Of a DNA stretch of 64,000 nt, positions 20,029 through 34,023 are shown one piece after another. Source of the stretch: Paenibacillus turpanensis. Its GTDB lineage: Bacteria > Bacillota > Bacilli > Paenibacillales > YIM-B00363. How positions within the stretch are numbered: the stretch's first letter is position 1; the number at the start of each line of letters is the position of its first letter. The stretch is from positions 42,232 to 106,231 of the forward strand of contig NZ_WTLI01000007.1 of the NCBI RefSeq assembly GCF_011421635.1, in the 5' to 3' direction. The position numbers and the translations under genes were made by a program. The notes below the pieces were generated by a model. That model was not told the DNA's origin, made no database searches, and saw nothing but the letters and a program-made list of their open reading frames with translations.

Positions 20029-20787
20029 ATGGAAATTACTCAACCTAATAGACCCAAGAGAAATGATTTCAGTAAAACAACTACTTTAAAATTAGTAAAA
20101 CGTGCCGGTGCCATGTGTTCCAATCCAAAATGCAAAATACTAACGTTTGGTGCTGTTGATAATGAAAATGAATCATACGATGTTGGTGAAGCTGCACATA
20201 TTCATGCTGCCTCAAAAAATGGGCCACGATACAATAAAGAATTATTAAAGTCTTATGTTACAAGTTTAGAAAACGGGATTTGGCTGTGTAGTAATTGCCA
20301 TGATATGGTTGACACTGCCTTTGAATCGTACTCAGCAGAATTGCTTAGGAAATGGAAAAATGACCATGAAGAAGAAATGAAAAAATACGGCGGGAAAAAG
20401 ATACTTAAAACAAACGATGAAAGTCTAGCAAAATTAATCATAAGCAAATATGAAAATACTGGTGCGTTGTATTTATTAGAAGAGGCTGAAAACCCCCACT
20501 TTGTAATAGATTCATTCATAAAAATGAGGCATGATCTCGTTGAATGGCAAAGCGAAAAGTATTCACCATCCATTGAGTTTAAAAAACACTTGAAGAAGAT
20601 GGCGACAGCACTTCAAAAGTTCTGTAATAATCCAGATAATGACTTGACTAAAAAGGGGAATTGTATTTTTGAAAATATCTTAAATTTTAGAAAAGAATAT
20701 GGCTTATATATAAAGTGGATAGTTGAAACATACAAAATTGAAGTAGAAGCTAGTTTGCAGTCAATTTTTTTGGAAGCAGAAGTCTGA
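20029..20787 (+). CDS. HNH-nuclease-domain protein with unknown C-terminal domain (AT-rich cargo gene A)
   Basis: N-terminal C-x4-C ... AAHIHAASKNG ... N ... WLCSNCHDMVD motif. About 160-aa C-terminal region of unknown fold. GC about 30%. Confidence 0.6.
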   Translation: MEITQPNRPKRNDFSKTTTLKLVKRAGAMCSNPKCKILTFGAVDNENESYDVGEAAHIHAASKNGPRYNKELLKSYVTSLENGIWLCSNCHDMVDTAFESYSAELLRKWKNDHEEEMKKYGGKKILKTNDESLAKLIISKYENTGALYLLEEAENPHFVIDSFIKMRHDLVEWQSEKYSPSIEFKKHLKKMATALQKFCNNPDNDLTKKGNCIFENILNFRKEYGLYIKWIVETYKIEVEASLQSIFLEAEV

Positions 20788-20855
20788 ATCCCGTAAATGA
20801 TTGGCAATTTATTTTGCAAAAAATGAATTTTACTCAAAGTTAAGATTGCGCCGAA

Positions 20856-21674
20856 ATGGGAGAAGACATGAGTTCAAGAAAAAAAATACCTCAAGATGTA
20901 GAAACAGATGTTTTAATAAAATCAAAAAGAAGATGTTGTTTGTGTTTTGGTATTCAAAATGACCTTGATGAAAAGAATGGCCAGATTGCCCATATTGATA
21001 AAAATAGAGATAATAATAACTTTGATAACCTAGCTTTCTTATGTTTTAATCATCATGACAAATACGATGCAGTTACTAGTCAAAGTAAAAACTATACAAA
21101 AAATGAGGTTAAAAGATATAGGGATGATTTATACGGATATTATGAAAAACTCTATGATAATGACATAAGTAATAATGATTTTCTTGATTACTTAAATAAA
21201 ACAATTAGAATTACTTCGGAAAGACATGAGGTAAAAGATAATAAAGTTATAGTAACAGTAGATAACCTTGAATTGATGAATTCTAAAACAATTGAACTGG
21301 AGTTATGGAATGATGGTAAATACGAATTAGTAATAAATAAAATCATTATGCAGAATAAACTCCCGTTCCATTATAGTAGTGAACATTGGACTCCCCTTCC
21401 CTTTAAAGGATCCGATAAAGACAATACTTTTACGTCAATTAGATACATAAACAATCATTTTCATGGTTTTGAAATAGAAAGTAATAAGTATATCAACTTA
21501 TATTATAATTTCCCACAATTAAGGATAGGCTTTGCAAAGAAAGTGTACACCTTTCAATTTGATTTTTTGGTAGACATCACCATACCCTCGAAATCATTCA
21601 ATTATAAAATAACGGATGTTTCAAGAGAAGTCATGAAAACCATTTATTTTGATTTTGTTCTAAATGACGATTAA
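20856..21674 (+). CDS. HNH-nuclease-domain protein with unrelated unknown C-terminal domain (AT-rich cargo gene B)
   Basis: RRCCLCFG ... QIAHIDKNRDNNNFDNLAFLCFNHHDKYD. The internal ATG at 20868 has a GGGAGAAG RBS and is the likely true start. C-terminal 180 aa unrelated to gene A. Confidence 0.6.
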   Translation: MGEDMSSRKKIPQDVETDVLIKSKRRCCLCFGIQNDLDEKNGQIAHIDKNRDNNNFDNLAFLCFNHHDKYDAVTSQSKNYTKNEVKRYRDDLYGYYEKLYDNDISNNDFLDYLNKTIRITSERHEVKDNKVIVTVDNLELMNSKTIELELWNDGKYELVINKIIMQNKLPFHYSSEHWTPLPFKGSDKDNTFTSIRYINNHFHGFEIESNKYINLYYNFPQLRIGFAKKVYTFQFDFLVDITIPSKSFNYKITDVSREVMKTIYFDFVLNDD

Positions 21675-21774
21675 CTTAATTCTGGGATATTAAATATTTA
21701 GTGTAATATAAATTATAAAGAAATAACATAAATTCATAATATAGGTAATACGTGTGTGATCATAGAGACTGTAA

Positions 21775-23126
21775 AATATTTTGTGTAAACTCTCAAAACC
21801 AAATCTAGTAAACTAGAAGAAAGGTCGGTTTGAGAGGATGACACAAGTGGCACGGTTTAGCAAGGAACAGGTAAAAGTATTCGTTAAAGAAAACAACCTG
21901 AAGACCATGGATGACGTACAATCTGCACTCAAGGAATTGTTTGCAGAGACGCTTCAGTCCATGCTGGAAGCCGAACTCGACACGGAACTCGGTTACGAGA
22001 AGCACGATGTGAAGAGCAAGGTGACCGCTAACAGCCGCAACGGCAAAACGAAAAAGACCGTCATTAGCGAATATGGTGAAGTGGAGATCCAAGTTCCGCG
22101 TGATCGTAACGGTGAGTTTGAGCCCATGATCGTGAAGAAGCATCAGTCGAATGTGACGGGGATCGAGGACCAGATTATCGCCATGTACGCCAAGGGTGTA
22201 AGTACACGCGACATCCAAGACCATCTGAACCGGCTCTACGGTATTGACGTCTCTCCTACGATGATCTCAAACGTAACCAACAAGATCGTACCTTTGATCA
22301 AGGAGTGGCAGAATCGCCCGTTGCAAGGCGTATATGCCGTTGTGTTCCTGGATGCCATTCACTTTAAGGTCAAGCAGGACGGAGCGATTGTGAACAAGGC
22401 GGCCTACATGGTCATCGGGATTGATCTGGATGGCAACAAGGACGTGTTGGGCATGTGGATTGGCGAGAATGAGTCCGCCAAGTTCTGGCTCAGCGTTCTT
22501 AACGATCTCAAAAACCGCGGCGTACAAGACATCCTCATCACATGTGTAGACAACCTGACGGGCTTCTCTCAAGCGATTATTGCCTGCTATCCGAAGACCG
22601 AGATCCAGAAGTGTATTATCCACCAAATCCGAAATTCCACGCGGTACGTGTCCTACAAGGACTTAAAGAGGGTTACTGCCGACTTAAAGCCGATCTATAA
22701 AGCCGCTACAGAAGAGGCAGCCTTGGTCGAACTGGATCGTTTCGAAGAGGCATGGGGAACCAAGTACCCGCTCATTATCCGCTCCTGGCGTAACAATTGG
22801 GACGAGCTTGCTACGTTCTTCAAATATCCCCCAGAGATCCGGAAACTCATCTATACGACCAACATCATTGAGAGTTACCATCGCCAACTCCGCAAAGTCA
22901 CCAAAGGAAAAAGCATCTTTCCCTCCGACGAAGCGTTGTGGAAGATGCTCTATCTGTCCACCATGGATGTGGTTCGGAAATGGACGGGCCGGGTTCAGAA
23001 CTGGGGACAAATGCTGTTACAGCTGTCCGTCTTTTTCCCCGATCGGGTCGGTCAACATTTACGGTAGGTAGGCCAACTCCCCCTCCCCGGGGGAGTTCCC
23101 TATAAATGAGTTTACACAAAATTATT
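21775..23126. mobile_element. IS256-family insertion sequence
   Basis: Single mutator-type transposase. Terminal inverted repeats AATA-TTTTGTGTAAACTC (left) and GAGTTTACACAAAA-TTATT (right), a 14-bp perfect core. About 1.35 kb, typical for IS256. No clean 8-bp target-site duplication was resolved. Confidence 0.8.
21838..23067 (+). CDS. IS256-family transposase (mutator type)
   Basis: 409 aa. Conserved IS256 transposase layout with a DDE region. Confidence 0.92.
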   Translation: MTQVARFSKEQVKVFVKENNLKTMDDVQSALKELFAETLQSMLEAELDTELGYEKHDVKSKVTANSRNGKTKKTVISEYGEVEIQVPRDRNGEFEPMIVKKHQSNVTGIEDQIIAMYAKGVSTRDIQDHLNRLYGIDVSPTMISNVTNKIVPLIKEWQNRPLQGVYAVVFLDAIHFKVKQDGAIVNKAAYMVIGIDLDGNKDVLGMWIGENESAKFWLSVLNDLKNRGVQDILITCVDNLTGFSQAIIACYPKTEIQKCIIHQIRNSTRYVSYKDLKRVTADLKPIYKAATEEAALVELDRFEEAWGTKYPLIIRSWRNNWDELATFFKYPPEIRKLIYTTNIIESYHRQLRKVTKGKSIFPSDEALWKMLYLSTMDVVRKWTGRVQNWGQMLLQLSVFFPDRVGQHLR

Positions 23127-23213: not shown

Positions 23214-23236
23214 CGTAATACTTTCACCATGTTCGT
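23214..23236 (+). repeat. 23-bp direct repeat, copy 1 (in the hen1 upstream region)
   Basis: CGTAATACTTTCaCCATGTTCGT. Copy 2 at 30935-30957 differs at one position. A shared GATATCGTT 9-mer follows both at different distances. Confidence 0.6.
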
Positions 23237-23290: not shown

Positions 23291-24556
23291 ATGGCAATCG
23301 TCCAAATCAGATCCACCAATCCGCAGTTTTCATTTTTGATCAAGAAAAATCCGAACACTGGCATGCAGCTTCGCTCGATCCGCAGGGGCATGGCGTACGG
23401 CTGGTACACGGATGAACAGACGTATAACGTGTATTTCAAAGATGCGGACAATGAGATTTCCTATAAACAGCACGAAAATGACAACTTCGAATATCTGAAC
23501 GTGTCGAGGTACAATACACCCTTGTTTCCGCTGAATGCAATTAATGAATTTTTCTCTGCACCGCTTAAGGCACAAGACGAACGTGATGGTGACGGCTATG
23601 AACATACCTTTTTCATCAATATGATACATATCGAACTCGTCCGGTATATTGACTACTTCGAAAAGCATCTCAAGGATTTCACTTTCGAAATCACTCATCA
23701 TGCGCATAAGAGCTACTCTCTCACCGTTACGACGCAGAAGAGTCTATACCAATTGCTCCATGTGGTTAGTGTATTATGCTTATTCCTCTCTATGTTCGGA
23801 AACGAATATATCGATATCTCGGAAAGCATCCTGGATAAGTACATTAAGAGCATGAATGTGATAGATGCGCCGTTTTATATTCGCAGCCTGTTTGTACGAA
23901 ACTTCCTGAACTCCAGAGACCGGTTTCAAAAATACAAAGCGGAGCTTGAGAAAACGGGACGCTATGAAATTCGATTCGCATACGGTGGCACAGCGCTGCA
24001 GCGGAGAAATTATATCGGAAGCGTGCTGGCTTTTGATAAGTCGATCTTGGACGTGGGCTGCGGAGAAGGATTCTATGCGATTCCTTTTGCGGGGAAAATT
24101 GAAGGCAGCTATTATGCGGTTGACGTTAATGAGGAGCTGCTGGAGAAGGTACAGCGTAAAGCGGAGGCCAAAGAGATCGATAACATCGTTACATTCGGCT
24201 CAATTGACCAATTCCTGGAGAGCTACAACGGGGAGCAGGTTGATGTGATCCTGACCGAGGTTATCGAACATATGAGCCAGGATGAGGCTAAACAGCTGAT
24301 TCACCAGATTTGTACTCATGTTGATTTTGACAGATTCATCATTACGACGCCTAATGCCGACTTTAACCGCTTCTACGAGCTGAGCGACTTCCGGCATGAT
24401 GATCACAAGTGGGAAATGGGCCAAGAGGCGTTCCAACATTGGATGCAAGATGTCATCCATGATACGAATTTACATGCCGAATTTGTTGCTGTCGGGGACG
24501 GCGTGAACAATATTCAAACTACACAGGGTGTTATTCTCAAGAAAAGGGGGGCCTGA
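23291..24556 (+). CDS. hen1: Bacterial Hen1-type RNA 3'-terminal 2'-O-methyltransferase
   Basis: 421 aa. C-terminal class I SAM methyltransferase (ILDVGCGEGFY, AVDVNEELL, ILTEVIEHM). N-terminal domain of about 240 aa. Adjacent to Pnkp with a 3-nt gap, the hallmark Pnkp/Hen1 pairing. Confidence 0.8.
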   Translation: MAIVQIRSTNPQFSFLIKKNPNTGMQLRSIRRGMAYGWYTDEQTYNVYFKDADNEISYKQHENDNFEYLNVSRYNTPLFPLNAINEFFSAPLKAQDERDGDGYEHTFFINMIHIELVRYIDYFEKHLKDFTFEITHHAHKSYSLTVTTQKSLYQLLHVVSVLCLFLSMFGNEYIDISESILDKYIKSMNVIDAPFYIRSLFVRNFLNSRDRFQKYKAELEKTGRYEIRFAYGGTALQRRNYIGSVLAFDKSILDVGCGEGFYAIPFAGKIEGSYYAVDVNEELLEKVQRKAEAKEIDNIVTFGSIDQFLESYNGEQVDVILTEVIEHMSQDEAKQLIHQICTHVDFDRFIITTPNADFNRFYELSDFRHDDHKWEMGQEAFQHWMQDVIHDTNLHAEFVAVGDGVNNIQTTQGVILKKRGA

Positions 24557-24559
24557 TCG

Positions 24560-27145
24560 ATGGATATCCAAACGAAGGTTCACACGATTTTCATGCTGGT
24601 TGGGTCAACGGAATGCGGCAAAACAACGTTCGCTAAGGAGGTACTGATTCCCGGTCTGCGATTTGAGGATATTAACCGGGGTGTCAGGGCCAATGTACAA
24701 TATTTATCCTCAGACCAGATCCGACAGGAGGTCCTTGGGTATGAGTATGACAAGTACGATCAGGTCATGCTCGAGGCTAGCGAACAAGCCTTTCACCTTT
24801 TATTTGAAAGATTGAGGATGACGACGTCTTTTCCGATCAATGCAGAGTTTGTTGTCGTAGATACAACTGGGCTCTCCGAGGATTTCCGGGCTAAGGTAAA
24901 GGAAATTGCATTTCAGAACAACTATAACCTTGAGGTCATCGTCTTCGATTACCGAAAGCGGGAAGATTACTATGCGTCGGAGCGCTCCAAGAAACTGATC
25001 ACCAATCACATCAATAGGCTGAAAAAGGAGGTCCTCCGCACGCTGCCCCGCGAGGGATACGGCAAGATTCATAAAGTGCGTGCAAAAGACTTTTATGTGG
25101 CCGAGGAGAGAAGGGCGAATCCCGAGTATAAAGTGATCACCGAAGATGTGGATGCGTACTTGGCGAGTATTCTCCCCCAGGACCAGCAGTACATTATAAT
25201 CGGTGACGTTCACGAATGTGTGGAGGATCTGAAGGGGCTGCTGCTCGACCATGGTTACAAGATCGAAGCAGGAAAGCTGGTCGTGGCTGATAAGCTGAAG
25301 CATACGAAGCTGATTTTGGTTGGCGACTGGATTGACAAGGGCAAGCAGACGAGGGAAACCGTCGAGTTTCTGTATGATAACCAAGAACATTTTTACTTTG
25401 TGCTTGGGAACCATGAAAATTTTGTTAGCAAGTACATCAAGGGTGAGATTAGCAGTGTTGATCAAGAGCTGCTCGAAACGTATTTTGACTCGACGCAAAT
25501 ATTACTGAATGATCCTGAACTGCTGCAGAAATTTGAACATCTAGTCTCGATCTCGAAGCCATTTTATCGGTATGTTGGGGCCAGGGGGTCATCCTTCTAT
25601 GTCACTCACGCTCCATGCCGGAACAAGTACATCGGTAAGCTGGATACGAATTCGGTCCGGCATCAAAGGAATTTCCGAATCGACCGGGATGCTCCACTGG
25701 AGGAGCAGCTTGTTTTTCTTCAGGAGGAATCGGTCAAAAACCATCCCTATCACATTTTCGGACACGTCGCGGCAAAACAGTCTTTCCGGATCGGAAATAA
25801 GCTTCATATCGACACGGGCAGCGTACATGGCAATCTCTTGACCTCTGTCTCGATTTCGTATAAACCGTTTATGAAGTCTCATAAGTCCAGACAAGCGGTG
25901 ATTACCGAGGAGCTGCAAACCTTATTTAAAGTGGAACGAAAGGTCTCCATTCAAGATCTTGGGGAGGATGACATCCGCCGACTCCACTACTGCTCGCGTA
26001 ATAAAATCAATTTCATCTCCGGCACGATGTCTCCGGCGGATAAGAACGACGAGACGAATGAACTCGAGTCGCTGAAGCGAGGTCTTGATTATTTCCGGGA
26101 GCACGGTGTTCAGCAGGTGGTGCTGCAGCCGAAGTATATGGGATCCCGATGCAACGTGTATCTGCATAAGGACCTGGATCAGTGTTATGCTGTCAGCCGC
26201 AATGGTTATAAGATTAACCAAGTCGATTTGACGGAGATTTACGGCAAGCTGCTTCATAAATTCGGTGAGTATATGGAACAACGGAAGATTGCCATGCTCA
26301 TTCTGGATGGAGAGCTTCTGCCGTGGAAGGCGCTCGGTGAAGGGTTGATCGATAGACAGTTCAAGCCCATTGAGAAAGCGCTGGAGACCGAGTTGACCTT
26401 TCTGCAGCTACACGGCTTTGAAGAAGCATACAACAAGCTTATTGCCAAATACGAAGCAAGCGGATTTGAAAAGGACCAGCATCATATCGGAAAATCCGCC
26501 TTAAGCGAGAAGTATGGTCCAAGTGTGTACCAAAACTATAAGTACGTCCATGAGATTCAGGACACGTATGTCCCGTTGTCGGGGCATATGGAGGCCTATC
26601 AAACGTACAGAAGACAGCTGGAGCTGTATGCAGAAGATGAAGCAATGACGTATAAGCCGTTTGCCTTATTAAAGATCGTATATGAGGACGGGATCGAAGA
26701 AATTCCGGCATGGAAGACCTCCGAGATGTACGGATTTCTGTCGGAGGACGTGGGACCTGTACTGGATCTCTCCGAGCCGGGGTATCTGGAGCAGGCGGAG
26801 CTTTACTTTTCGAAGCTGACGATGGAGAACCATATGGAGGGGATCGTAATCAAGCCCGAGCTGTGGAACGGTAAAACGGTGCCTTATATGAAGGTGCGAA
26901 ATCCCGATTATTTGTCCATCATCTATGGGTACGACTACAAGTTTCCGCACAAGTACCGAAAGCTGCTCAAGCAAAAGAATGTGAATCAAAAGCTTCGTAC
27001 CTCGCTTAATGAGTACCAGCTGGGAATGCAAATGCTGGCGGTGCCATTGGATGAGATTGCGCCTGAGCATGTTGCCTATAAGGAGATCGCTGCTAATCTC
27101 TTGTTTGAAGTTGCACAGGAGCGGGAGATCGATCCGCGTTTATAA
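24560..27145 (+). CDS. pnkp: Polynucleotide kinase-phosphatase-ligase (Pnkp) of the Pnkp/Hen1 RNA repair system
   Basis: 861 aa, tri-domain. N-terminal P-loop kinase GSTECGKTT. Central calcineurin-type phosphoesterase with GDVHEC, GDWIDKG and GNHEN. C-terminal adenylyltransferase/ligase-like domain with a candidate motif-I lysine in PKYMGSR. Size matches Clostridium-type Pnkp at about 870 aa. Confidence 0.85.
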   Translation: MDIQTKVHTIFMLVGSTECGKTTFAKEVLIPGLRFEDINRGVRANVQYLSSDQIRQEVLGYEYDKYDQVMLEASEQAFHLLFERLRMTTSFPINAEFVVVDTTGLSEDFRAKVKEIAFQNNYNLEVIVFDYRKREDYYASERSKKLITNHINRLKKEVLRTLPREGYGKIHKVRAKDFYVAEERRANPEYKVITEDVDAYLASILPQDQQYIIIGDVHECVEDLKGLLLDHGYKIEAGKLVVADKLKHTKLILVGDWIDKGKQTRETVEFLYDNQEHFYFVLGNHENFVSKYIKGEISSVDQELLETYFDSTQILLNDPELLQKFEHLVSISKPFYRYVGARGSSFYVTHAPCRNKYIGKLDTNSVRHQRNFRIDRDAPLEEQLVFLQEESVKNHPYHIFGHVAAKQSFRIGNKLHIDTGSVHGNLLTSVSISYKPFMKSHKSRQAVITEELQTLFKVERKVSIQDLGEDDIRRLHYCSRNKINFISGTMSPADKNDETNELESLKRGLDYFREHGVQQVVLQPKYMGSRCNVYLHKDLDQCYAVSRNGYKINQVDLTEIYGKLLHKFGEYMEQRKIAMLILDGELLPWKALGEGLIDRQFKPIEKALETELTFLQLHGFEEAYNKLIAKYEASGFEKDQHHIGKSALSEKYGPSVYQNYKYVHEIQDTYVPLSGHMEAYQTYRRQLELYAEDEAMTYKPFALLKIVYEDGIEEIPAWKTSEMYGFLSEDVGPVLDLSEPGYLEQAELYFSKLTMENHMEGIVIKPELWNGKTVPYMKVRNPDYLSIIYGYDYKFPHKYRKLLKQKNVNQKLRTSLNEYQLGMQMLAVPLDEIAPEHVAYKEIAANLLFEVAQEREIDPRL

Positions 27146-27152
27146 TCGTGAT

Positions 27153-27192
27153 AGAGTGTCTGAGCCATTCTGTGGTTCAGGCACTTTTTTTC
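27153..27192 (+). terminator. Candidate terminator after pnkp (imperfect)
   Basis: GTGTCTGAGCC-loop-GGTTCAGGCAC followed by T7. Two stem mismatches. Confidence 0.4.
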
Positions 27193-27305
27193 GTTGCGGA
27201 ACGTTTGGGTAAGAATTAATTATTCCCATCTTCAGGGCAAAAGGTAAAGGTATAATGAAATTACTAGAAGACGGGAATAAGTTCTACAGGAAGAGAAGTG
27301 TAGCC

Positions 27306-27899
27306 ATGTTAAATCAAGCAGTTGAAAAAAGCTTAAGTAAATTCATGACCAAGATTCTTCGGCATACCCCTGAGGATTTTGGTGTTGTCCTAGATCCCGT
27401 GGATGGTTCGTGTCCGCTAAGCACTTTGCTGGAAGTCATCCAAGCCCAATCTCAATGGGGGTGGGTGAAAAAGGAACATATCGAACAGGTGGTACGCCAT
27501 TCGGATAAGCAGCGCTTTGAGATCGAAGGCGACCGCATAAGAGCCAGGTACGGCCACAGTCATAATAAAGTGCAATACACACCGGGCGTGCCTCCAGAGT
27601 ACGTCTACCATGGCACAAACAAGAAAGCCCTCCCATTGATCTTGAAGGATGGCATACGTCCGATGAGCCGTCAGTATGTTCATTTGTCGGAAGGCACCCA
27701 TTTTGCAGCACTCGCGGGCAGCCGCAGAGGCGAACTGGTGATTCTTAAGGTAGACACCGTAAGCGCACAGCAGCTGGGAGTCACGTTTTATTATGCGGGT
27801 AACGAAGTGTGGTTGGCTAATAGCGTGCCGCCAGGTTGTTGCTCCGTGATGGATAACAAGGAAAAGGAGCACTCAAATCATGAATCATTCAATTATTGA
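27306..27899 (+). CDS. kptA: RNA 2'-phosphotransferase (Tpt1/KptA family)
   Basis: LSKFMTKILRHTPEDFG, HGT..., YVHLSE motifs co-linear with E. coli KptA. Start at 27306 chosen by alignment to KptA's N-terminus and an AGGAAGAG RBS. The ORF track's longer alternative begins at 27255. Confidence 0.85.
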   Translation: MLNQAVEKSLSKFMTKILRHTPEDFGVVLDPVDGSCPLSTLLEVIQAQSQWGWVKKEHIEQVVRHSDKQRFEIEGDRIRARYGHSHNKVQYTPGVPPEYVYHGTNKKALPLILKDGIRPMSRQYVHLSEGTHFAALAGSRRGELVILKVDTVSAQQLGVTFYYAGNEVWLANSVPPGCCSVMDNKEKEHSNHESFNY

Positions 27900-28668
27900 T
27901 ATCGGCATCAATTTGATGCATCGTACATTCCATCAAGATCGTGATCAGGTCGTCGAAAGGGCACTGGACAACCATGTGACACCTCTTATCATTACAGGGA
28001 CAAGTTTGAGGAGCAGTCTAGAAGCAGCACGCTACGCCGGACGGTACCCGGAAAAGCTGTACGCTACTGCAGGAGTTCATCCTCATGATGCGAAGAACTG
28101 CAACGAGGAGACCATCGCGAAGCTGAAAGAATTGGCGGCATTACCGCAGGTTGTAGCCATCGGCGAATGCGGGCTGGATTATAACCGGGATTTCTCGCCG
28201 CGGGATGTTCAGCGCAAATGGTTCACGGAGCAGGTTCAGTTGGCGGTGGAGCTTAAAATGCCGCTGTTTCTGCATGAGCGGGAGGCTTTTTCAGACTTTG
28301 TTGCAATCCTAAAGGATAACGCGGTTCAAAAAGCGGTCGTTCATTGTTTTACGGGAACCTATGCAGAGCTTAAAGCTTACCTAGAAATGGGCTTCCATAT
28401 TGGCATTACCGGATGGATTTGTGACGAACGAAGAGGGAAGCATCTGAGGGACCTTGTCCGAATGATTCCGCTCGACAGGCTGATGATCGAGACGGATGCC
28501 CCCTTTCTGACTCCGCGGGATCTAAAGGAAAAGCCAGCGGAGGGACGGAACGAGCCTGCATTCCTGCCGCACATTCTGCAAACCGTAGCAACATGCATCG
28601 GCAGACCCGTGGAAGAGGTTGCTAAAGCGACAACGGAGACTTCAGTGGACTTTTTCGGTCTTTCGTGA
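27880..28668 (+). CDS. tatD: TatD-family metal-dependent hydrolase/nuclease
   Basis: 262 aa. HxH start (MHRTFH), VHPHDAK, GECGLDY, ETDAPF. Overlaps the kptA 3' end by about 20 nt, implying translational coupling. Confidence 0.85.
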   Translation: MNHSIIDIGINLMHRTFHQDRDQVVERALDNHVTPLIITGTSLRSSLEAARYAGRYPEKLYATAGVHPHDAKNCNEETIAKLKELAALPQVVAIGECGLDYNRDFSPRDVQRKWFTEQVQLAVELKMPLFLHEREAFSDFVAILKDNAVQKAVVHCFTGTYAELKAYLEMGFHIGITGWICDERRGKHLRDLVRMIPLDRLMIETDAPFLTPRDLKEKPAEGRNEPAFLPHILQTVATCIGRPVEEVAKATTETSVDFFGLS

Positions 28669-28698
28669 TCACAAGAGGAAGTTCAAAGGAGGACAGGA

Positions 28699-29943
28699 GT
28701 GCGATTAAATCAATTTCGTTATGATTTGGCCCGCGGGTTAGGGAGCGTCATGCTTTACTTGAAGCAATCTCCCAGACTCGCTAATAAGCATATTGATGCT
28801 ATATATCATGCTTGTATCAAGAATACCGCTTATGACCCCCAATGTGATATAAGCAGGGAAGATTATCTTTGGGAGATCATTCAGCTCTCCGAAGAATCCG
28901 AACAGCTACAAAAACGGATACTCGCCGCCTTGGAGAGCGATATAGATGGTTGGGATTTGCTGCAGGTATACCGCTTAGCGAAAATTTTTGCCCTTAAAAG
29001 TCATTCAACAGCAGTAGAAGCCATGAAGAAAGGATTCCGTTACCACGAAGATTGGAACAGCTTCATTGGCGGGGAAGAGATCATAGCGGTTGAAGGGGAG
29101 CAGGGCTTCTTGTTTGTGGCAAGCCGAATTGGGGAGCAAATATTGTCCTCCGACTATGAGGAGAGTAAATTTCTGCTGGAGTTCGCATATGAAAAAATAG
29201 GGGAAGAAAAGGTGACGGCTCTCCTTGAGAGCCAAGGTGATGCGAATATTCAGGCATTCGTGCAATCGTCAGTCCACCAGCAAGAATATACCCAATCGAA
29301 GCCGCTTCACATAGTGTCTTACAATGAGTTGAAGTCGACCATAGGAACGGGATCTGGAGGTCTATATCGCTACACCAGATGGGGGAAGCATGCCTCTAAA
29401 GAAGATCTGTTAAAGGCAGCTAACGATCTGCTGCAAGAGAGTAATTCAAAAATACTATTGCCCTATCTCTATATCTTCGCCAAAGCGGTTTTCCCGCTTG
29501 ATCCACAAAAGCTAATTGAATTAGCGGGTTCGAAAAATAGGCGTTTGCGCTCGCAGGCCATTAGAGTCCTAAGTAATATTAAGGATGAGCGGATCCACAA
29601 GCTTGCGATTAAGCTTGCCACGGAGCGGGCAACTGAAATTGATGCATTGGACCTTTTTATCCACAATTGTTCCGATGAAGACGTACACCTATTCGAGCAA
29701 ATTGTTTTCAAGAATCATAGTAGGGATACGTTTCATAGTGCTGGGTTCAGCATTCTTAAAATATTCGAAAATAACCGAACTCCATTATGCCGGAAGATTC
29801 TAATTGAACTTTATAAGAAGGCACTTTGCACCTTTTGTCGACAGCGCAGTGTAGAAATCATGGTACTAAATGGCATACTGCCGGATTCTATTCAAAATGA
29901 AATCCTGCACGATTGTAATCCGGATATTCGTGTCTTGGGATAA
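28699..29943 (+). CDS. Hypothetical alpha-helical (HEAT/ARM-like?) protein in the RNA repair cassette
   Basis: 414 aa, no recognisable catalytic motifs. GTG start with AAGGAGGA RBS, 30 nt after tatD. Lower GC than neighbours. Confidence 0.6.
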   Translation: MRLNQFRYDLARGLGSVMLYLKQSPRLANKHIDAIYHACIKNTAYDPQCDISREDYLWEIIQLSEESEQLQKRILAALESDIDGWDLLQVYRLAKIFALKSHSTAVEAMKKGFRYHEDWNSFIGGEEIIAVEGEQGFLFVASRIGEQILSSDYEESKFLLEFAYEKIGEEKVTALLESQGDANIQAFVQSSVHQQEYTQSKPLHIVSYNELKSTIGTGSGGLYRYTRWGKHASKEDLLKAANDLLQESNSKILLPYLYIFAKAVFPLDPQKLIELAGSKNRRLRSQAIRVLSNIKDERIHKLAIKLATERATEIDALDLFIHNCSDEDVHLFEQIVFKNHSRDTFHSAGFSILKIFENNRTPLCRKILIELYKKALCTFCRQRSVEIMVLNGILPDSIQNEILHDCNPDIRVLG

Positions 29944-29982
29944 GAAGCACAAACGCCGGGCTTCCATGACCGGCGCATTTAC

Positions 29983-30270
29983 TTATTTTCTTCTATAGTA
30001 CCTTTCCCAATCTTGAATGACTTCTGCTTTATTCAATAACCGCTTCCTCAGGCACTGGGATGTTTCCCATTCATGTATTGCTTGCTGCTTTGTTTTGAAA
30101 AAGCGATAGTCACAGATATTCCAGGAGCAGAACAGCTTTCGGTACCATTTACCGTTTTGGACATTACCAGTGAAACGGCGAACAGCCTTATTTGCTTGTC
30201 GTTTGCTCCAGCGGGTGCCGGGTGTATGATGGTCTTTCCATGCGGGTGATTTTTTCACACTATTACTCAT
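29983..30270 (-). CDS. Hypothetical small basic protein
   Basis: 95 aa. AAGGAGGGG RBS 8 nt upstream on the minus strand. No recognisable family. Confidence 0.45.
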   Translation of the reverse strand: MSNSVKKSPAWKDHHTPGTRWSKRQANKAVRRFTGNVQNGKWYRKLFCSWNICDYRFFKTKQQAIHEWETSQCLRKRLLNKAEVIQDWERYYRRK

Positions 30271-30934
30271 TTGGCTCTCTAACCCCTCCTTACGGGAAGC
30301 TAGAGACCGTCTAATTTCTTCATTTACTCACCTCATCCAGAGTATAATGGCTTTTGAAAGTATTAAACGCTAACCATGAATATATGTTTCTTAGTGGATT
30401 TGTCTATAATGATTCTTTACTAACACTGGTCACAAGATATAGTACGATTTAGTTGGATTTTTTATGGAGGAAAGTGCATGAGGTTCCTATTTTGTTTTCA
30501 TTGACCTTTATCCTTTTCATCCATACTTTACTCCTCCAAGTTACGAAGATAGCTCTTTGTCGGCCGTAACAACCCCATAACGTTCCAAAGTTTTCGTCTA
30601 TGCTTCGAGCATTCTCCTCCTCAAATGATTACCCTCGATAACCCGAACCAGAACCCGATTCCCGTGAAAACGGATTTCTTCAGTCGGTTGCTCATAAAGG
30701 CTTGATACCGGGTGTGATACCGGAGCAAATACCATACCTGTTTGATCATGGAGTGTAGCAGCATAACTGCTGCCGATTGAAAGCACCGCTTGTCAGCATC
30801 AGCATCCGCAGGAACTGGATTTGTTTATCAAAAGCTCTCCTCTCCTTAACCAAAAGAATTATCCGCCCAAAATACATTTTCTTCCATTTTGATAGGGGTG
30901 GGATTTGGGTGAAATGGAAAAGTTTATGCCGCCT

Positions 30935-31131: not shown

Positions 31132-31442
31132 TTGACGCGATTCTGGTAGAGCACTCGACTTTCAATCGAGCGAAAAAGTTGAAGAAGGACCAAAGGATAG
31201 AATCCCTGGCGGCTAGCATATGCGCACTGCAGCTCAGCCATGTAATCCGTGGATACCGATGAGCGGAACGCCGAAGACTTTTTTGGGATGGAAGAGACAA
31301 AAGGTTGGCTGAACGAGGGTCAATCTTCTGAACCCGATGTCCTTCAAAAACACCGTCAGACCGCTTATCTCAAACGGGATTCCGCCGGAGCTGCAGTGGG
31401 ATTCTTTCATCCAATGGTCAAATCATGAAGGGGGTAACAAAG

Positions 31443-32558
31443 ATGTTTAACCAAGTAACCATTCAAGCCGACCAGCGCGGTTTACTCTTTCATAAAGGAA
31501 GCTATGTGAAAAAGCTCAATCCGGGGACCTACCGCTACTTAGCGTGGTCGCAAAATACCGTTGTCGTGCTGAATATCACGAAACCGTTCGTTGTAGAGGG
31601 AAAAGAGCTGCAATTGTTTTTTCAAGATGAAGACCTGGTGCGGGAGCTCGACATCGTACGGGTGCAGGACCACGAGTACGTGCTCCATTACGAGGACGGC
31701 CAATTCGTGCAGCTGCTTAAGCCTGGCACCTACGCCTACTGGAACATACTGAAGAAGCATACGTTCCTGCATGCGGATATTCGAAACCCCGAGCTGCCTG
31801 TCGGGGTAGACCGCTCGATCCTTCCGAAGCTTGCAGTCCACGTGCAGTCTTGCGAAATCGCAAGCTACGAGTCCGGATTTTTGTTTTACGATCATGTTCT
31901 GCAGCGGGAGCTTACTCCCGGCAGGTACTACTTTTGGAAAGGACCCGTTTCGGTTATGGTCAAGTCGGTTGATGGAAGACAGCAGCAAATGGATCTCGTT
32001 GGTCAGGAAATCATGACGGAAGACAAGGTCACGCTGCGCCTGAACTTCGTCTGCCAATACAAGATCGTGAACCCTTTACGAAGCTTGGAAATGAAATCGT
32101 TCGAGGAGCAGATCCACATCCAGCTTCAGCTCATGCTTCGGGAGTATGTCGGAACGCTGAAATTAGATGACCTCTTGAAACGGAAAGAGGACGTAGCATC
32201 CTTCGTCTTGTCCCGTTTACGTGAGAAGGGGGAAGAGTTTGGTGTGCAGTTCCTGAGCGCGGGAGTTAAGGATGTTATTTTGCCGGGGGAAATGAAAGAG
32301 ATCCTAAACACGGTCTTGCTGGCGGAGAAAAAAGCCCAGGCGAACCTCATCACCCGCCGGGAAGAAACGGCCTCGACTCGAAGTCTGCTGAACACGGCTA
32401 AGCTGATGGACGAGAACCAGACGCTCTTCCGTTTGAAGGAGCTGGAGTTCCTCGAGAAAATGTGCGAGAAAATCGGCTCTATCTCTGTAACGGGTGGCGG
32501 AGACCTGTTGGAGCGGTTAAGCTCCCTCATTGGGGAGAAAAGGGCGGCAAGTAAATAA
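31443..32558 (+). CDS. SPFH/Band-7 (slipin-like) domain protein with a novel N-terminal triple-repeat domain, no TM anchor
   Basis: C-terminal 200 aa resemble SPFH proteins (VTLRLNFVCQYKIVNP, AEKKAQANLI..., LKELEFLEKM coiled region). The N-terminal 190 aa contain three L-x-PG-T/R-Y-x-Y/F modules. GGGGG RBS before the ATG at 31443. Confidence 0.7.
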   Translation: MFNQVTIQADQRGLLFHKGSYVKKLNPGTYRYLAWSQNTVVVLNITKPFVVEGKELQLFFQDEDLVRELDIVRVQDHEYVLHYEDGQFVQLLKPGTYAYWNILKKHTFLHADIRNPELPVGVDRSILPKLAVHVQSCEIASYESGFLFYDHVLQRELTPGRYYFWKGPVSVMVKSVDGRQQQMDLVGQEIMTEDKVTLRLNFVCQYKIVNPLRSLEMKSFEEQIHIQLQLMLREYVGTLKLDDLLKRKEDVASFVLSRLREKGEEFGVQFLSAGVKDVILPGEMKEILNTVLLAEKKAQANLITRREETASTRSLLNTAKLMDENQTLFRLKELEFLEKMCEKIGSISVTGGGDLLERLSSLIGEKRAASK

Positions 32559-32586: not shown

Positions 32587-32718
<132 letters not shown>

Positions 32719-32796
32719 ATGAGCGGGATCATAAGCTGCGTGAGGCAAAAGGATTGTAGAAGAAGTGAATGATTGATGGATACAGGAGTTGATCTT

Positions 32797-34023
32797 ATGG
32801 CTTATCAAACGATAAACGGCGTTCGTGTCTGGGGGAACCCAGACGACGGAGCAATGACTCAAGCTAAGACATGTGCAGAACACGGTAATGTGGTTCAGAC
32901 CCTTCTCATGGCGGATCATCATAAAGGGTACAGCCAGCCGATCGGTGGGGTCGTGGTCTATGACGGGCAGATTTCCCCATCCGGCGTTGGGTATGATATC
33001 GCTTGCGGGAATAAGGCAGTGCGCACCTGCTTGACCGCAGCAGATGTAAAACCCAAATTGAATAAGGTGATGGATGAGATTGCCCGCAGAATATCTTTTG
33101 GCGTGGGACGCGTTAACAATGAAAAGGTGGACCATGAGCTTTTTGATGATCCGGATTGGGACGTTTATAAGGCGGTAGGCAAGCAGGAGCATAACAAGCT
33201 GAAGGCATTGGCGCGAGACCAGCTCGGAACAGTCGGAAGCGGTAACCACTTCGTAGACCTGTTTGTGGAAATGGAAACAGGCCGATTGTGGATTGCCAAC
33301 CACTTCGGAAGCAGAGGGTTCGGACATAAAACAGCGAGCGGGTTTATCAACCTGGCTGCTGGTAGGAAGTTTCTCGCTAATGCCCCCGGGGAAAAGATGG
33401 ACCAAGCGCCTGTGCTGCTTGATCTTGGTAGTGAGCTGGGGGATATGTATTACCGGGCGATGAAGCTGGCGGGACGCTACGCTTATGCAGGACGGGATTA
33501 TGTGATCCGTCAGGTGTTAGACATTCTGGGGACGGAAGCCGACCTTGAAGTGCATAACCATCATAACTATGCCTGGAAAGAGGTGCATGACGGCAAGGAG
33601 GTCATGGTTGTGCGTAAAGGAGCGACCCCTTCTTCGCCAGGCCAGGTTGGTTTTATCGGTGGCAGCATGGGGGATATCTCCGTTATCGTCAAAGGGAAGG
33701 ACAGCGAAGAGAATCGGGACGCTTACTACAGCACCGTTCATGGAGCGGGACGGATCATGAGCCGGACTCAGGCAGCAGGAAAAATGAACTGGAAAACCCG
33801 CACCAGAAGCGGCGGCCAAATCAGTACAGAGCAGATGATGGAGGCCGTTCGGGGTTATGGTGTGGAGCTGCGTGGCGCAGGTACGGATGAGAGTCCGTTT
33901 GTATACCGGAAGCTTCAAGAGGTGCTTGATGCGCATGCCGAAACGATTGAGGTCCTGCATGTGTTGAAGCCTATCGGTGTTTGCATGGCCGGTGCGGATG
34001 AATTTGATCCGTACAAGGATTAA
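32797..34023 (+). CDS. rtcB: RNA 3'-phosphate/2',3'-cyclic phosphate ligase RtcB
   Basis: HHKGYSQPIGGV, GYDIACG, GSGNHF, HNHHNYAWKE and VHGAGR motifs. Start ambiguous between 32773, 32776 and 32797. Confidence 0.9.
   Translation: MAYQTINGVRVWGNPDDGAMTQAKTCAEHGNVVQTLLMADHHKGYSQPIGGVVVYDGQISPSGVGYDIACGNKAVRTCLTAADVKPKLNKVMDEIARRISFGVGRVNNEKVDHELFDDPDWDVYKAVGKQEHNKLKALARDQLGTVGSGNHFVDLFVEMETGRLWIANHFGSRGFGHKTASGFINLAAGRKFLANAPGEKMDQAPVLLDLGSELGDMYYRAMKLAGRYAYAGRDYVIRQVLDILGTEADLEVHNHHNYAWKEVHDGKEVMVVRKGATPSSPGQVGFIGGSMGDISVIVKGKDSEENRDAYYSTVHGAGRIMSRTQAAGKMNWKTRTRSGGQISTEQMMEAVRGYGVELRGAGTDESPFVYRKLQEVLDAHAETIEVLHVLKPIGVCMAGADEFDPYKD

Follow-up and report, generated by a model that had tools for sequence, protein, structure and literature searches.

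The window analysed here, the whole stretch of 64,000 nucleotides of Paenibacillus turpanensis DNA, contains a compact run of three co-oriented genes, kptA (tpt1), tatD and orf414, lying just behind hen1 and pnkp (Table 1). The end of kptA overlaps the start of tatD by 20 nt (27880-27899), and an AAGGAG at 27864-27869, still inside kptA, is found 10 nt upstream of the tatD ATG. The tatD stop codon is separated by 30 nt from the GTG of orf414, which is preceded by AAAGGAGG (28685-28692) with a spacer of 6 nt. The overlap, the internal AAGGAG and the GTG start had all been pointed out in a first-pass annotation of this DNA, and they are read directly in the sequence. A longer kptA reading frame, from an ATG at 27255, was rejected in favour of 27306, because NCBIfam models and homologues begin there and because the upstream ATG shares nucleotides with the conserved -10 hexamer (27251-27256).

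Table 1. Position of the genes and predicted regulatory features in the window
Feature	Position	Strand	Description
kptA/tpt1	27306..27899	+	ATG 27306, stop TGA 27897-27899; 197 aa; NAD+-dependent RNA 2'-phosphotransferase (predicted)
tatD	27880..28668	+	ATG 27880, stop 28666-28668; 262 aa; Group I TatD metal-dependent 3'-5' exonuclease/hydrolase (predicted)
orf414	28699..29943	+	GTG 28699-28701, stop 29941-29943; 414 aa; variable third gene
hen1	23291..24556	+	421 aa; 3'-terminal RNA 2'-O-methyltransferase; opens separate upstream transcription unit
pnkp	24560..27145	+	861 aa; polynucleotide kinase / 2',3'-phosphatase / ligase
orf95	29983..30270	-	Small basic Trp-rich protein, convergent on the kptA-tatD-orf414 unit
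WYL regulator pair remnants	30574..30841	-	c2 C-terminus 30574-30678; WYL-WCX N-terminus 30761-30841
SPFH/Band-7 protein	31425..32558	+	Pfam Band_7 8.6e-21; island context
rtcB RNA ligase	32773..34023	+	Pfam RtcB 6.2e-72; island context
RlaP remnant	32626-32712		5' of rtcB; 29 aa, 79% identity
hen1-pnkp intrinsic terminator	27153..27194	+	16-bp stem, then T-run
Imperfect palindrome	27198..27228	+	Candidate operator/activator site of the kptA unit
-10 hexamer TATAAT	27251..27256	+	kptA-tatD-orf414 promoter (predicted)
Weak hairpin	29954..29975		Between convergent orf414 and orf95; possible bidirectional terminator

KptA matches the Pfam family PTS_2-RNA (PF01885) at 3e-37 (128.7 bits for a cut-off of 26) over profile positions 4-176 of 177, and solved Tpt1 structures at 1e-34; it scores below the NCBIfam PRK00819 equivalog cut-off (164 vs. 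231 bits). The catalytic Arg-His-Arg-Arg tetrad, which in Runella Tpt1 consists of Arg16, His17, Arg64 and Arg119 (PMC6097658, PMC6573784), is present as R19-H20 (ILRH), R79 (RARYGHS) and R122 (RQYVHLS). Alignment with a solved Tpt1 shows the same residues at these positions, the correspondence being one of motifs rather than of superposed structures. From its family and residues, KptA is predicted to be an NAD+-dependent RNA 2'-phosphotransferase. TatD belongs to the Pfam family TatD_DNase (PF01026; 2e-75, 254 bits for a cut-off of 27), passes the TIGR00010 cut-off (215 vs. 206 bits), and matches Pseudomonas putida TatD (3rcm) at 1.7e-81 and, over its full length, the Escherichia coli TatD chains 1xwy, 4pe8 and 4p5u at about 1e-75. 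The E. coli enzyme (ExoXI) digests single-stranded RNA in the 3'-5' direction; its metal-binding and catalytic residues are H62, E91, H127, H152, E201 and D203, and it has no N-terminal HxH (PMC4176340). The same residues are present in the window protein, within GVHPHD (H67, H69), IGECGLD (E96), FLHERE (H132), VVHCFTG (H155) and IETDAP (E204, D206), while its N-terminus reads DIGINL and likewise lacks the HxH. Its score against NF007745, the NCBIfam equivalog of E. coli TatD, is 307.8 bits for a cut-off of 395, and it is accordingly assigned on sequence to a related subfamily and not called an equivalog.

The kptA-tatD unit is predicted to be transcribed separately from hen1-pnkp, since a strong terminator follows pnkp, kptA has a conserved promoter and palindrome of its own, and the element conserved upstream of hen1 is a different one. 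The terminator was identified by a terminator scan and by RNA folding (-24.5 kcal/mol, z = -4.8), and its hairpin is kept 5' of kptA in most of the related loci (numbered L001 onwards), including those without pnkp. Twelve loci keep the imperfect palindrome (consensus GGAACGTTTGG-N-CCAAA-N-TTCCCGT), each in a single copy about 21 nt 5' of the -10; the L009 and L011 copies can be read on either strand. In an alignment of 14 upstream regions, five of the six TATAAT positions are invariant and the sixth is more than 90% conserved. Both elements also precede kptA in loci without hen1-pnkp. In L114, from which kptA is deleted, the right half of the palindrome still precedes tatD, and the same promoter is predicted to serve tatD-orf414. 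No sigma-70-like -35 is found upstream of the kptA -10, so the promoter may depend on an activator. RNA folding detects no stable structure in the tatD-orf414 spacer, which fits co-transcription of the third gene.

Is this pairing peculiar to one strain? Among 20 Paenibacillaceae kptA loci, tatD lies directly 3' of kptA in 13, with both genes intact in 11 of these. At the junctions the two genes overlap by up to 20 nt or stand up to 20 nt apart, in forms that include ATGA, ATGAATAA and overlaps of 17-20 nt. In Saccharibacillus the two genes are fused: the KptA::TatD proteins, of 602-611 aa, form three sequence clusters (one from a complete genome), have a low-complexity linker, keep all motifs and adjoin RtcB, not Pnkp. 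A divergent, unfused pair occurs in L036 (KptA 47% and TatD 68% identity), and some 38 TatD clusters were matched by hand to KptA clusters through longest contigs of equal size, some of 2.1-7.7 kb. By adjacency across divergent genomes and flanks, and by gene fusion, tatD is thus a neighbourhood partner of kptA. Adjacency in this strain alone, which the first-pass annotation had named as grounds for rejecting its proposal, is not what the related loci show. The operon partnership proposed in the first-pass annotation is borne out by these loci, by the tight junctions, by the fusion and by the conserved promoter and operator. That the association is "fixed", as was also suggested, does not hold: seven of the 20 loci and two outgroup kptA loci are without tatD, and close relatives of tatD are found without kptA in three metagenomic loci (L033-L035) and in L114. 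All pairs come from Paenibacillaceae-like genomes; so far the association is limited to a single bacterial family. A literature search turned up no paper that connects TatD to Tpt1.

Adjacency might in principle be an accident of history, the genes hitch-hiking on one mobile island without any functional link. The island adjoins ssrA, behind an integrase, and the window and Gorillibacterium blocks are, to judge by their divergence, one horizontally transferred island (integrase 98% identical, dS of 0.2-0.35 between the two genera). However, the pair survives in different flanks that have neither integrase nor hen1-pnkp (L009, L011, L012, L014, L019 and L020), keeps its own promoter, is fused beside RtcB instead of Pnkp in Saccharibacillus, and persists down to 47% identity of KptA; the accidental reading, already disfavoured, can be given hardly any credence.

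The wider neighbourhood is one of RNA repair. Hen1 matches Pfam Hen1_N at 3.4e-109, carries methyltransferase domains and is 97% identical in amino acids to the Gorillibacterium copy, while Pnkp combines AAA_33, Metallophos and PNKP_ligase. With all five domains found in two co-oriented genes 3 nt apart, this is a hen1-pnkp cassette with the same domain set as the adjacent genes of Clostridium thermocellum, which are described as two genes, with no KptA/TatD extension in the published description (PMC3675462). Hen1 and Pnkp score so far below their NCBIfam equivalog cut-offs (73 vs. 340 and 179 vs. 750 bits) that they appear to represent a divergent subfamily. In six of the 20 loci, the window included, pnkp directly precedes kptA, and three further ones have broken, displaced or divergent copies; 3' pnkp remnants adjoin kptA in three loci. 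Besides Hen1-Pnkp or its remnants, the genes that recur around kptA encode a WYL-WCX regulator pair (intact in 7 related loci), RlaP, Ro60, RtcB, the SPFH protein (L007, L017 and L019), an ADP-ribosylglycohydrolase (ARH) directly 3' of kptA or tatD (L010, L015 and L018), NADAR (L005, L008 and L024) and Macro (L004). No DNA-repair gene recurs in the kptA loci, and no 2H phosphoesterase is seen in the islands. The P. turpanensis island has lost the WYL pair and RlaP except for remnants; a tblastn search that used the intact proteins of P. aestuarii as queries detected those of the WYL pair (66% identity over 35 aa and 63% over 27 aa). The genes are all under purifying selection (dN/dS 0.06-0.27), but these deletions, together with the decay of the cassette in some relatives (L005, L024 and L025), suggest that selection on it is intermittent.

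The role of bacterial Tpt1 where there is no tRNA splicing of the fungal type is an acknowledged puzzle (PMC6097658, PMC6573784). The first-pass annotation treated the enzyme as one without a pathway, which underplays its context: the locus immediately follows Hen1-Pnkp, the RNA-repair island also includes RtcB, and a bacterial Tpt1 in a repair cluster has a precedent in Runella slithyformis (PMC6097658). There too, in a cluster of ligase, HD-Pnk, Tpt1 and methyltransferase, Tpt1 stands beside end-healing, ligase and methyltransferase genes, and the Tpt1 cassette is also a separate unit, after a spacer of about 150 nt. However, that cluster, from another phylum, has HD-Pnk and a separate ligase where the window has trifunctional Pnkp and Hen1, and the partner of its Tpt1 is a methyltransferase, TatD being absent. 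The RtcR/Ro60/RtcB operons and the DRB0098-0100 operon of Deinococcus radiodurans (ligase-PARG-HD-Pnk) are damage-regulated and likewise combine ligase with end healing (PMC7790460, PMC11833690); the Deinococcus operon includes an ADP-ribose hydrolase, and Ro60 and RtcB recur beside kptA-tatD. The regulator is in our case presumably a WYL protein pair rather than the sigma-54 activator RtcR, and neither of those operons, as described, includes KptA-TatD.

As for orf414, the helical character proposed from its sequence is confirmed by an AlphaFold model, which is all alpha (pLDDT 90.3, pTM 0.83). No Pfam or NCBIfam model matched the protein; with a sub-threshold HEAT_2 match in 13 of 16 family members, the model suggests a HEAT/ARM-like alpha-solenoid. 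The conserved residues are C39, D46, Q48, H346, C377-x-x-C380-R381, E401 and D405, and the invariant Cys/His/CxxC-R signature makes a zinc site probable. We flag this large HEAT/Cys-His family, which comprises about 2,900 clusters and is without a Pfam model. Five contexts were examined at 66% identity or more (the window, L004, L005, L113 and L114/115), and in each of them orf414 lies directly 3' (30-44 nt) of kptA and/or tatD, whereas relatives at 61% or less (L001, L002, L006, L028, L031 and L116) are unlinked to either gene; such distant members occur alone or among toxin-immunity genes. In the genome census it is found in two of the 13 tatD-linked kptA loci and is missing from the other eleven, where the third slot may be empty or filled by ARH (L015 and L018) or CdiI_ImmP (L012, 2.3e-29). 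It accompanies kptA without tatD in L113 and tatD without kptA in L114, and in L005 its reading frame is whole beside frameshifted or truncated copies of hen1, pnkp, kptA and tatD.

If KptA, TatD and orf414 were an obligate three-component system, with orf414 as the missing partner, for instance a recruiter of substrate RNA, one could understand the five close contexts with their differing flanks, the strong ribosome-binding site, the unstructured spacer and the purifying selection on orf414 (dN/dS 0.27). Such a system is nevertheless improbable given the eleven tatD-linked loci without orf414, its survival of the broken cassette in L005, the unlinked members of so large a family, and the loss of kptA or tatD singly while the other stays with orf414, which argues against an obligate complex. 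Of the partnership first proposed for orf414, only the association within the subclade of at least 66% identity therefore stands, and the gene is an occasional add-on, not a core component. Most likely its product is co-induced with the cassette and has a binding, adaptor or immunity-like role. An orphan protein of immunity type, directed against an incoming RNase or ADP-ribosyltransferase toxin and sharing the island because both counter the same attacks, would account for CdiI_ImmP in the same slot, for CdiI-like genes in L017 and L024, for the occurrence of distant relatives among Imm19 and Sel1 genes (L116) and SUKH/SMI1_KNR4 and DUF6985 genes (L006), and for the modelled repeat-protein binding fold. 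However, the protein matches neither PADLOC models nor any of the Pfam immunity families, an adjacent toxin gene is not seen, and several family members occupy unrelated housekeeping contexts. In addition D46, Q48, R381, E401, D405 and the Cys/His cluster are kept over the roughly 2,900 clusters, so the protein looks more like one with a conserved ligand or active site than like a fast-evolving immunity surface. We consider this immunity role rather unlikely; it concerns orf414 alone and is compatible with an RNA-end-processing function of the cassette.

For kptA-tatD itself, the pairing, the fusion, the active-site residues, the separate promoter with its palindrome and the island context make it probable that the two genes are a conserved two-enzyme cassette, which serves the RNA-repair islands of Paenibacillaceae as an accessory module for processing RNA ends. 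At the core of these islands would be an RNA ligase system, Hen1-Pnkp in the window and RtcB in Saccharibacillus, and they would normally be governed by the PafBC-like WYL protein pair that this strain has lost. We infer that, after RNA breakage of the ribotoxin type, KptA would use NAD+ to strip 2'-phosphates that the ligation pathway cannot tolerate, at junctions and possibly also at ends, as does C. thermocellum Tpt1, which removes terminal 2'- and 3'-phosphates (PMC6573784). On the same 3' end, TatD, as a Mg2+-dependent single-strand 3'-5' exonuclease, would trim damaged or blocked terminal nucleotides; RlaP, which extends damaged RNA ends by 1-2 nt (PMC12776372), would then restore the end for sealing by Hen1-Pnkp or RtcB. 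The Pnkp phosphatase itself removes 2'-phosphate, 3'-phosphate and 2',3'-cyclic phosphate ends (PMC3675462), so it is not evident that end healing requires KptA, and none of the island genes was recognised as encoding an enzyme that generates a junction 2'-phosphate. Nor would one expect a trimming exonuclease in precise tRNA repair.

More tentatively, KptA and TatD may be dedicated to the damaged 3' ends of RNA as an "unblock-and-trim" or "unblock-and-clear" pair, in which NAD+-dependent removal of the 2'(3')-phosphate by KptA would license TatD to act on that end, the two enzymes would be in physical contact, as is implied by their fusion in Saccharibacillus, and orf414, a Zn-HEAT protein, would serve as substrate-recruiting adaptor in one sublineage. 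If so, the pair would be the first physiological pathway for a bacterial Tpt1, and the orf414 family a new class of nucleic-acid-end or ADP-ribose-binding proteins.

Alternatively, TatD could clear the NAD-derived products of KptA and leave RNA untouched. This would suit the repeated presence of ADP-ribose-processing genes (ARH, NADAR and Macro) near kptA in islands without a visible 2H phosphoesterase, and fusion and translational coupling would suit product channelling; C. thermocellum Tpt1, moreover, accumulates 3'-phospho-ADP-ribosylated RNA and caps 5'-phosphate ends (PMC6573784). Against it, the protein is a typical Group I TatD, close to an E. coli enzyme characterised as a 3'-5' exonuclease of single-stranded DNA and RNA (PMC4176340). 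TatD and ARH also co-occur in L015 and L018 and so do not substitute for each other. We know of no TatD that hydrolyses a nucleotide cyclic phosphate, and product clearance is an unlikely function. In fungal and plant tRNA splicing, Trl1 ligase is followed by Tpt1 and by clean-up through Cpd1 and Poa1 (PMC6097658, PMC9503650), and the Macro, ARH and NADAR neighbours parallel Poa1; in contrast, the islands have no Trl1-type ligase to create the junction 2'-phosphate and no 2H phosphodiesterase, and the coupled partner is a TatD hydrolase.

A role at DNA ends, in a DNA-damage response rather than in RNA repair, seems very doubtful. WYL regulator pairs such as PafBC do respond to DNA damage. E. 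coli TatD has been implicated in the repair of H2O2-induced DNA damage, TatD proteins have AP-endonuclease activity (PMC4176340, PMC10085689), and Tpt1 enzymes can ADP-ribosylate DNA 5'-phosphates (PMC6182162, PMC11833690). Yet the other recurrent neighbours are all RNA-repair components (Hen1, Pnkp, RtcB, Ro60 and RlaP), and DNA-repair genes never recur in these loci. The literature consulted ties E. coli tatD to DNA repair and not to kptA, while the tatD genes of these loci are translationally coupled or fused to kptA. The proposed RNA-end-processing cassette points to a possible RNA-repair role for a Group I TatD, a group whose activity is well described and whose cellular function is uncertain. 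The locus and its relatives give Tpt1 a tractable context: a TatD partner, a defined promoter and operator, and a surrounding set of repair enzymes (Hen1-Pnkp or RtcB, RlaP, Ro60 and ADP-ribose hydrolases).

Downstream of the unit, the hairpin between orf414 and orf95 is a weak signal (-12.7 kcal/mol, z = -2.05). The orf95 product has no match in Pfam, NCBIfam or PADLOC; the gene is kept convergent after orf414 (L002/3 and L115) or directly after tatD (L008, L024 and L033), at 67-83% identity.

The gene kptA (tpt1), which encodes a putative NAD+-dependent RNA 2'-phosphotransferase, is followed in the window by the nuclease gene tatD and by orf414, a third gene of 414 codons. The geometry described in the first-pass annotation is reproduced exactly by the ORF table and by the sequence itself: kptA and tatD overlap by 20 nt, with an AAGGAG motif carried within kptA, and the GTG start of orf414 lies 30 nt past the tatD stop and 6 nt past AAAGGAGG. 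The trio has hen1 and pnkp directly upstream, and a convergent 95-aa gene (orf95), an SPFH/Band-7 gene and rtcB downstream; together with the tmRNA gene ssrA and a tyrosine integrase, these neighbours place it in an RNA-repair island, which is the proper frame for the three genes. The same annotation proposed a fixed association of all three as a lead to the pathway of bacterial Tpt1. What it observed holds, while its interpretation holds in part, since TatD stands as a partner and the fixed trio does not.

Features of the window and of comparison loci (L-numbers; ARH, ADP-ribosylglycohydrolase)
Feature	Position	Strand	Remarks
ssrA (tmRNA gene)	17498-17859/62		Rfam 190 bits
tyrosine integrase	18072-19190		~210 nt or less after ssrA
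HNH_2 protein, 272-aa unknown ORF, Mutator-family transposase	20029-23067		between integrase and hen1; transposase 395 bits
22-nt element	23214-23235		upstream of hen1
hen1	23291-24556		Hen1_N 3e-109
pnkp	24560-27145		kinase, metallophosphoesterase, PNKP_ligase
palindrome	27198-27228		upstream alignment
TATAAT hexamer	27251-27256		
kptA	27306-27899	+	Pfam PTS_2-RNA 3e-37
AAGGAG	27864-27869		within kptA
tatD	27880-28668	+	Pfam TatD_DNase 2e-75
orf414	28699-29943	+	GTG start
orf95	29983-30270	-	95 aa, basic, Trp-rich; convergent on kptA unit end
WYL regulator pair remnants	30574-30841		short; genes intact in related islands
RlaP remnant	32626-32712		short; gene intact in related islands
ARH, three species	L015 11323-12318; L018 11351-12271; L010 5182-6078		PF03747, 7e-66; slot of orf414
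CdiI_ImmP-type immunity protein	L012 11413-11925; L017 10659-11117; L024 15460-15981		in or beside kptA unit
orf95 relatives	L002 11292-11579; L008 11443-11730; L024 11445-11792; L033 6865-7152; L115 2589-2876		67-83% identity
Gordoniibacillus kamchatkensis locus	L005 5212-9963		orf414 and NADAR intact; tatD lacks first ~170 codons
metagenome TatD locus	L038 57-6782		TatD, rtcR, Ro60, RtcB

At the head of the Gorillibacterium island stands an integrase with 98% identity to that of the window. With this and with ssrA beside the window's copy, the RNA-repair island has the look of an integrative element at that gene. The far boundary was sought as a repeat of the ssrA 3' terminus, with no convincing match (best 22 nt, 91% identity, E 0.03). 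The island is variable on its left side: between integrase and hen1, Gorillibacterium carries a Ser/Thr kinase instead of the window's genes. When the window is compared with the Gorillibacterium block, dN/dS is 0.06 for Hen1, 0.09 for Pnkp, 0.15 for TatD, 0.25 for KptA and 0.27 for orf414, and purifying selection acts on every gene compared. Across these five and the integrase, dS is 0.21-0.35, and SPFH stands at 0.54. Such uniformly low dS across two genera, together with the near-identical integrase, indicates a recent horizontal transfer of the entire island, so the five-gene order shared by the window and Gorillibacterium is one event, not two. Although their Pfam domains are complete, Hen1 (421 aa) and Pnkp fall far short of the NCBIfam equivalog thresholds, Hen1 reaching 73 bits where 340 are needed and Pnkp 179 where 750 are needed; by sequence the two form a divergent Pnkp-Hen1 subfamily in which Hen1 is short. 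Of the island's genes, the window strain has lost the presumed regulator and the RlaP nucleotidyltransferase, and has kept Hen1, Pnkp, KptA, TatD, SPFH and RtcB.

How general the pairing is can be judged from a KptA scan of GTDB species genomes, whose 21 loci were searched by tblastn with the window proteins. tatD lies immediately 3' of kptA at 13 of the 20 Paenibacillaceae loci, window included, from Paenibacillus, Gorillibacterium and one misnamed 'Bacillus'. Eleven of these 13 carry an intact kptA and an intact tatD, the exceptions being P. puldeungensis, where a premature stop interrupts tatD, and P. periandrae, where both are lost. The junction is tight throughout: the genes overlap by 20 nt in the window and in P. 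piri and by 17 nt in one other locus, ATGAATAA forms the junction in three loci and ATGA in a single one, and gaps of 4-20 nt separate the genes in the other unfused loci. Further upstream, six loci (again counting the window) have hen1-pnkp directly 5' of kptA. P. piri, P. periandrae and P. albidus have a broken, displaced or divergent hen1-pnkp, and short pnkp 3' remnants adjoin kptA in three species, P. allorhizosphaerae, P. puldeungensis and P. periandrae. Because intact copies, broken copies or remnants recur in this way, hen1-pnkp-kptA-tatD looks like the ancestral order for the clade. On a metagenome contig, a divergent pair is also found unfused (KptA 47%, TatD 68% identity), and some 38 TatD clusters could be matched by hand to KptA clusters through equal longest-contig size, a rough proxy for a shared contig, some of these contigs measuring only 2.1-7.7 kb.

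The link is recurrent and specific to the clade, but it is not fixed as had been proposed: tblastn over the KptA census gave seven kptA loci without tatD, and three close TatD relatives (72-89% identity) have no kptA within their 2.7-6 kb of upstream sequence. A TatD-centred metagenome scan (80 loci, 52-89% identity) found kptA upstream in one, and tatD was found in neither outgroup kptA locus (Saccharothrix and a proteobacterial MAG). TatD is a genuine, though non-obligate, partner of KptA. Three metagenome contigs (L038, L048 and L070) with TatD near RtcR, Ro60 or RtcB were set aside as anecdotal, their association being loose (convergent genes, 3.6-kb spacing or no Pfam support). In L038, a Group I TatD (65% identity) converges on rtcR, followed by Ro60 and RtcB, an arrangement that may be coincidence or a link between TatD and RNA repair beyond Paenibacillaceae. 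Gorillibacterium sp. sgz5001074 apparently has two KptA (86% and 72% identity to the window) and two TatD on one 264-kb contig (P0021/P0311 and P0063/P0354), possibly a resident and an island-borne pair.

When a 452-aa KptA-TatD protein of P. puerhi was used as query, Saccharibacillus brassicae yielded KptA::TatD proteins 602-611 aa long. The P. puerhi protein itself was set aside as evidence of fusion, its kptA frame entering tatD through one single-base deletion relative to its relatives, possibly an assembly error; the fusion argument is therefore placed on Saccharibacillus. There the two enzymes are joined by a low-complexity linker of ~75 aa, with complete catalytic motifs, in three sequence clusters, of which one comes from a complete genome. 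The fused gene stands after Ro60 and RtcB and before a P-loop kinase, near a WYL/WCX pair. With RtcB beside it and hen1-pnkp absent at this locus, the kptA-tatD module thus accompanies one or the other of the two ligase systems.

The pair also has its own regulatory signals. pnkp is followed by a terminator with a 16-bp stem (-24.5 kcal/mol, z -4.8), and alignment of 14 kptA upstream regions gives an imperfect palindrome, GGAACGTTTGG...CCAAA..TTCCCGT, then after ~21 nt a TATAAT hexamer invariant at 5/6 positions, and a leader of ~50 nt before kptA; in the window, transcription is predicted to begin near 27263. The palindrome occurs once per locus, also where hen1-pnkp is missing, and kptA-tatD is predicted to be a separate conserved transcription unit. 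No -35-like hexamer was found in the aligned regions, so the promoter is probably activator-dependent. The 11-mer half-site is not enriched in the window (26 matches with <=2 mismatches, 20 expected), and thus gives no sign of a wider regulon there. Upstream of hen1, the 22-nt element CGTAATACTTTCACCATGTTCG, conserved in five hen1 loci, is unlike the kptA palindrome; the hen1 and kptA units may therefore have separate operators.

The third gene behaves otherwise. A word-index homologue search had made orf414 an orphan with 19 members, a picture overturned by an exhaustive profile search that returned 2,937 cluster representatives, mostly full length and 1,362 of them at E <= 1e-30. No relative was found in the viral contigs searched, and neither orf414 nor orf95 has a match in PADLOC, Pfam or NCBIfam. 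The first-pass description of the protein as helical is borne out by a confident, wholly helical AlphaFold model (pLDDT 90.3, pTM 0.83). Across 147 representatives (median identity 29%), C39, D46, Q48, H346, C377, C380, R381, E401 and D405 are 95-100% conserved, a Cys/His/CxxC pattern suggestive of a metal site, with zinc the expected ligand partner of C39, H346, C377 and C380. The Gorillibacterium sp. relative (81%) lies in the same five-gene block as the window's, and that of Gordoniibacillus (74%) is intact, preceded by hen1, pnkp and kptA with frameshifts and by a tatD that is truncated, and followed by NADAR; an intact TatD (P0390) is reported elsewhere on that contig. On a Logan contig (66%), kptA-orf414 occurs without tatD or hen1-pnkp, and on a second contig (67%) the conserved promoter leads into tatD-orf414 with no kptA and with orf95 convergent. 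Other members are unlinked: in P. sanfengchensis (61%), whose kptA is elsewhere behind hen1-pnkp; in a Paenibacillus sp. (57%), where orf95 is the neighbour and Ro60 lies 3.5 kb off; in a member at 41%, surrounded by Imm19, Sel1 and Pol-beta NTase genes; and in Dictyobacter and two distant members. As the KptA census has orf414 in only two of the 13 paired loci, the third slot being filled elsewhere by ARH (L015, L018) or CdiI_ImmP (L012) or left empty, its role as a fixed partner is not supported, and orf414 is a lineage-restricted accessory.

Both core enzymes appear competent. KptA aligns to solved Tpt1 structures at 1e-34 and keeps the motifs of the Arg-His-Arg-Arg tetrad (PMC6097658; PMC6573784) as R19-H20, R79 and R122. 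TatD matches P. putida TatD at 1.7e-81 and E. coli TatD at ~1e-75. The equivalents of H62, E91, H127, H152, E201 and D203 are kept in it, and the absence of an N-terminal HxH makes it a Group I member (residues as in PMC4176340). The E. coli enzyme digests single-stranded DNA and RNA as a 3'-5' exonuclease that depends on Mg2+ (PMC4176340). Tpt1 removes 2'-PO4 by means of NAD+; certain bacterial Tpt1s, the C. thermocellum enzyme among them, take off terminal 2'/3'-PO4 as well and cap 5'-PO4 ends (PMC6573784). The Pnkp phosphatase by itself clears 2'-PO4, 3'-PO4 and cyclic phosphate ends (PMC3675462), and the non-redundant part of KptA would then be junction 2'-PO4 removal or ADP-ribosyl-phosphate chemistry. 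TatD would work on the same 3' end, by trimming or clearing, and RlaP, which adds 1-2 nt at damaged RNA 3' ends and is required under excessive tRNA damage (PMC12776372), would finish the repair with the ligases. The Saccharibacillus fusion argues for close cooperation of the two enzymes, and the loss of one gene with the other persisting (L113, kptA-orf414 without tatD; L114, tatD-orf414 without kptA) argues against an obligate complex. The main alternative to action on a common 3' end is that TatD clears the NAD-derived products of KptA, as hinted by the ARH, NADAR and Macro genes near kptA.

Full-text searches found no paper linking TatD with Tpt1/KptA: TatD with Tpt1 gave only unrelated papers, and KptA with TatD and RNA repair none containing TatD. 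An earlier comparative-genomics review, that of Burroughs and Aravind (NAR, 2016), is the likeliest catalogue of KptA neighbourhoods and might include the pair. There is precedent in Runella, where a bacterial Tpt1 lies in a putative repair cluster (PMC6097658), comparative-genomic work treats KptA as an RNA-repair component (PMC9503650), and Pnkp-Hen1 is well characterised (PMC3675462); kptA-tatD is therefore a variation on a known kind of RNA-repair system.

Clustering of the ORFs around kptA, followed by cluster annotation, gives the recurrent company of these islands. An HTH-WYL-WCX regulator occurs in seven loci, always with a second WYL protein, a pair that resembles PafB/PafC. RlaP is present in six loci and Ro60 in four; RtcB, SPFH, NADAR, Macro, an R2K ATP-grasp protein, SF0329 and the CdiI-type immunity protein also recur. 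ARH is directly 3' of kptA in P. aestuarii and overlaps the tatD end in G. timonense and P. puldeungensis. The CdiI_ImmP gene of L012 stands 47 nt beyond tatD on the same strand, and the presence of such genes in or beside kptA units suggests that the islands gather defences against contact-dependent toxins too. As for orf95, it is always convergent on the unit end, either past orf414 or directly past tatD.
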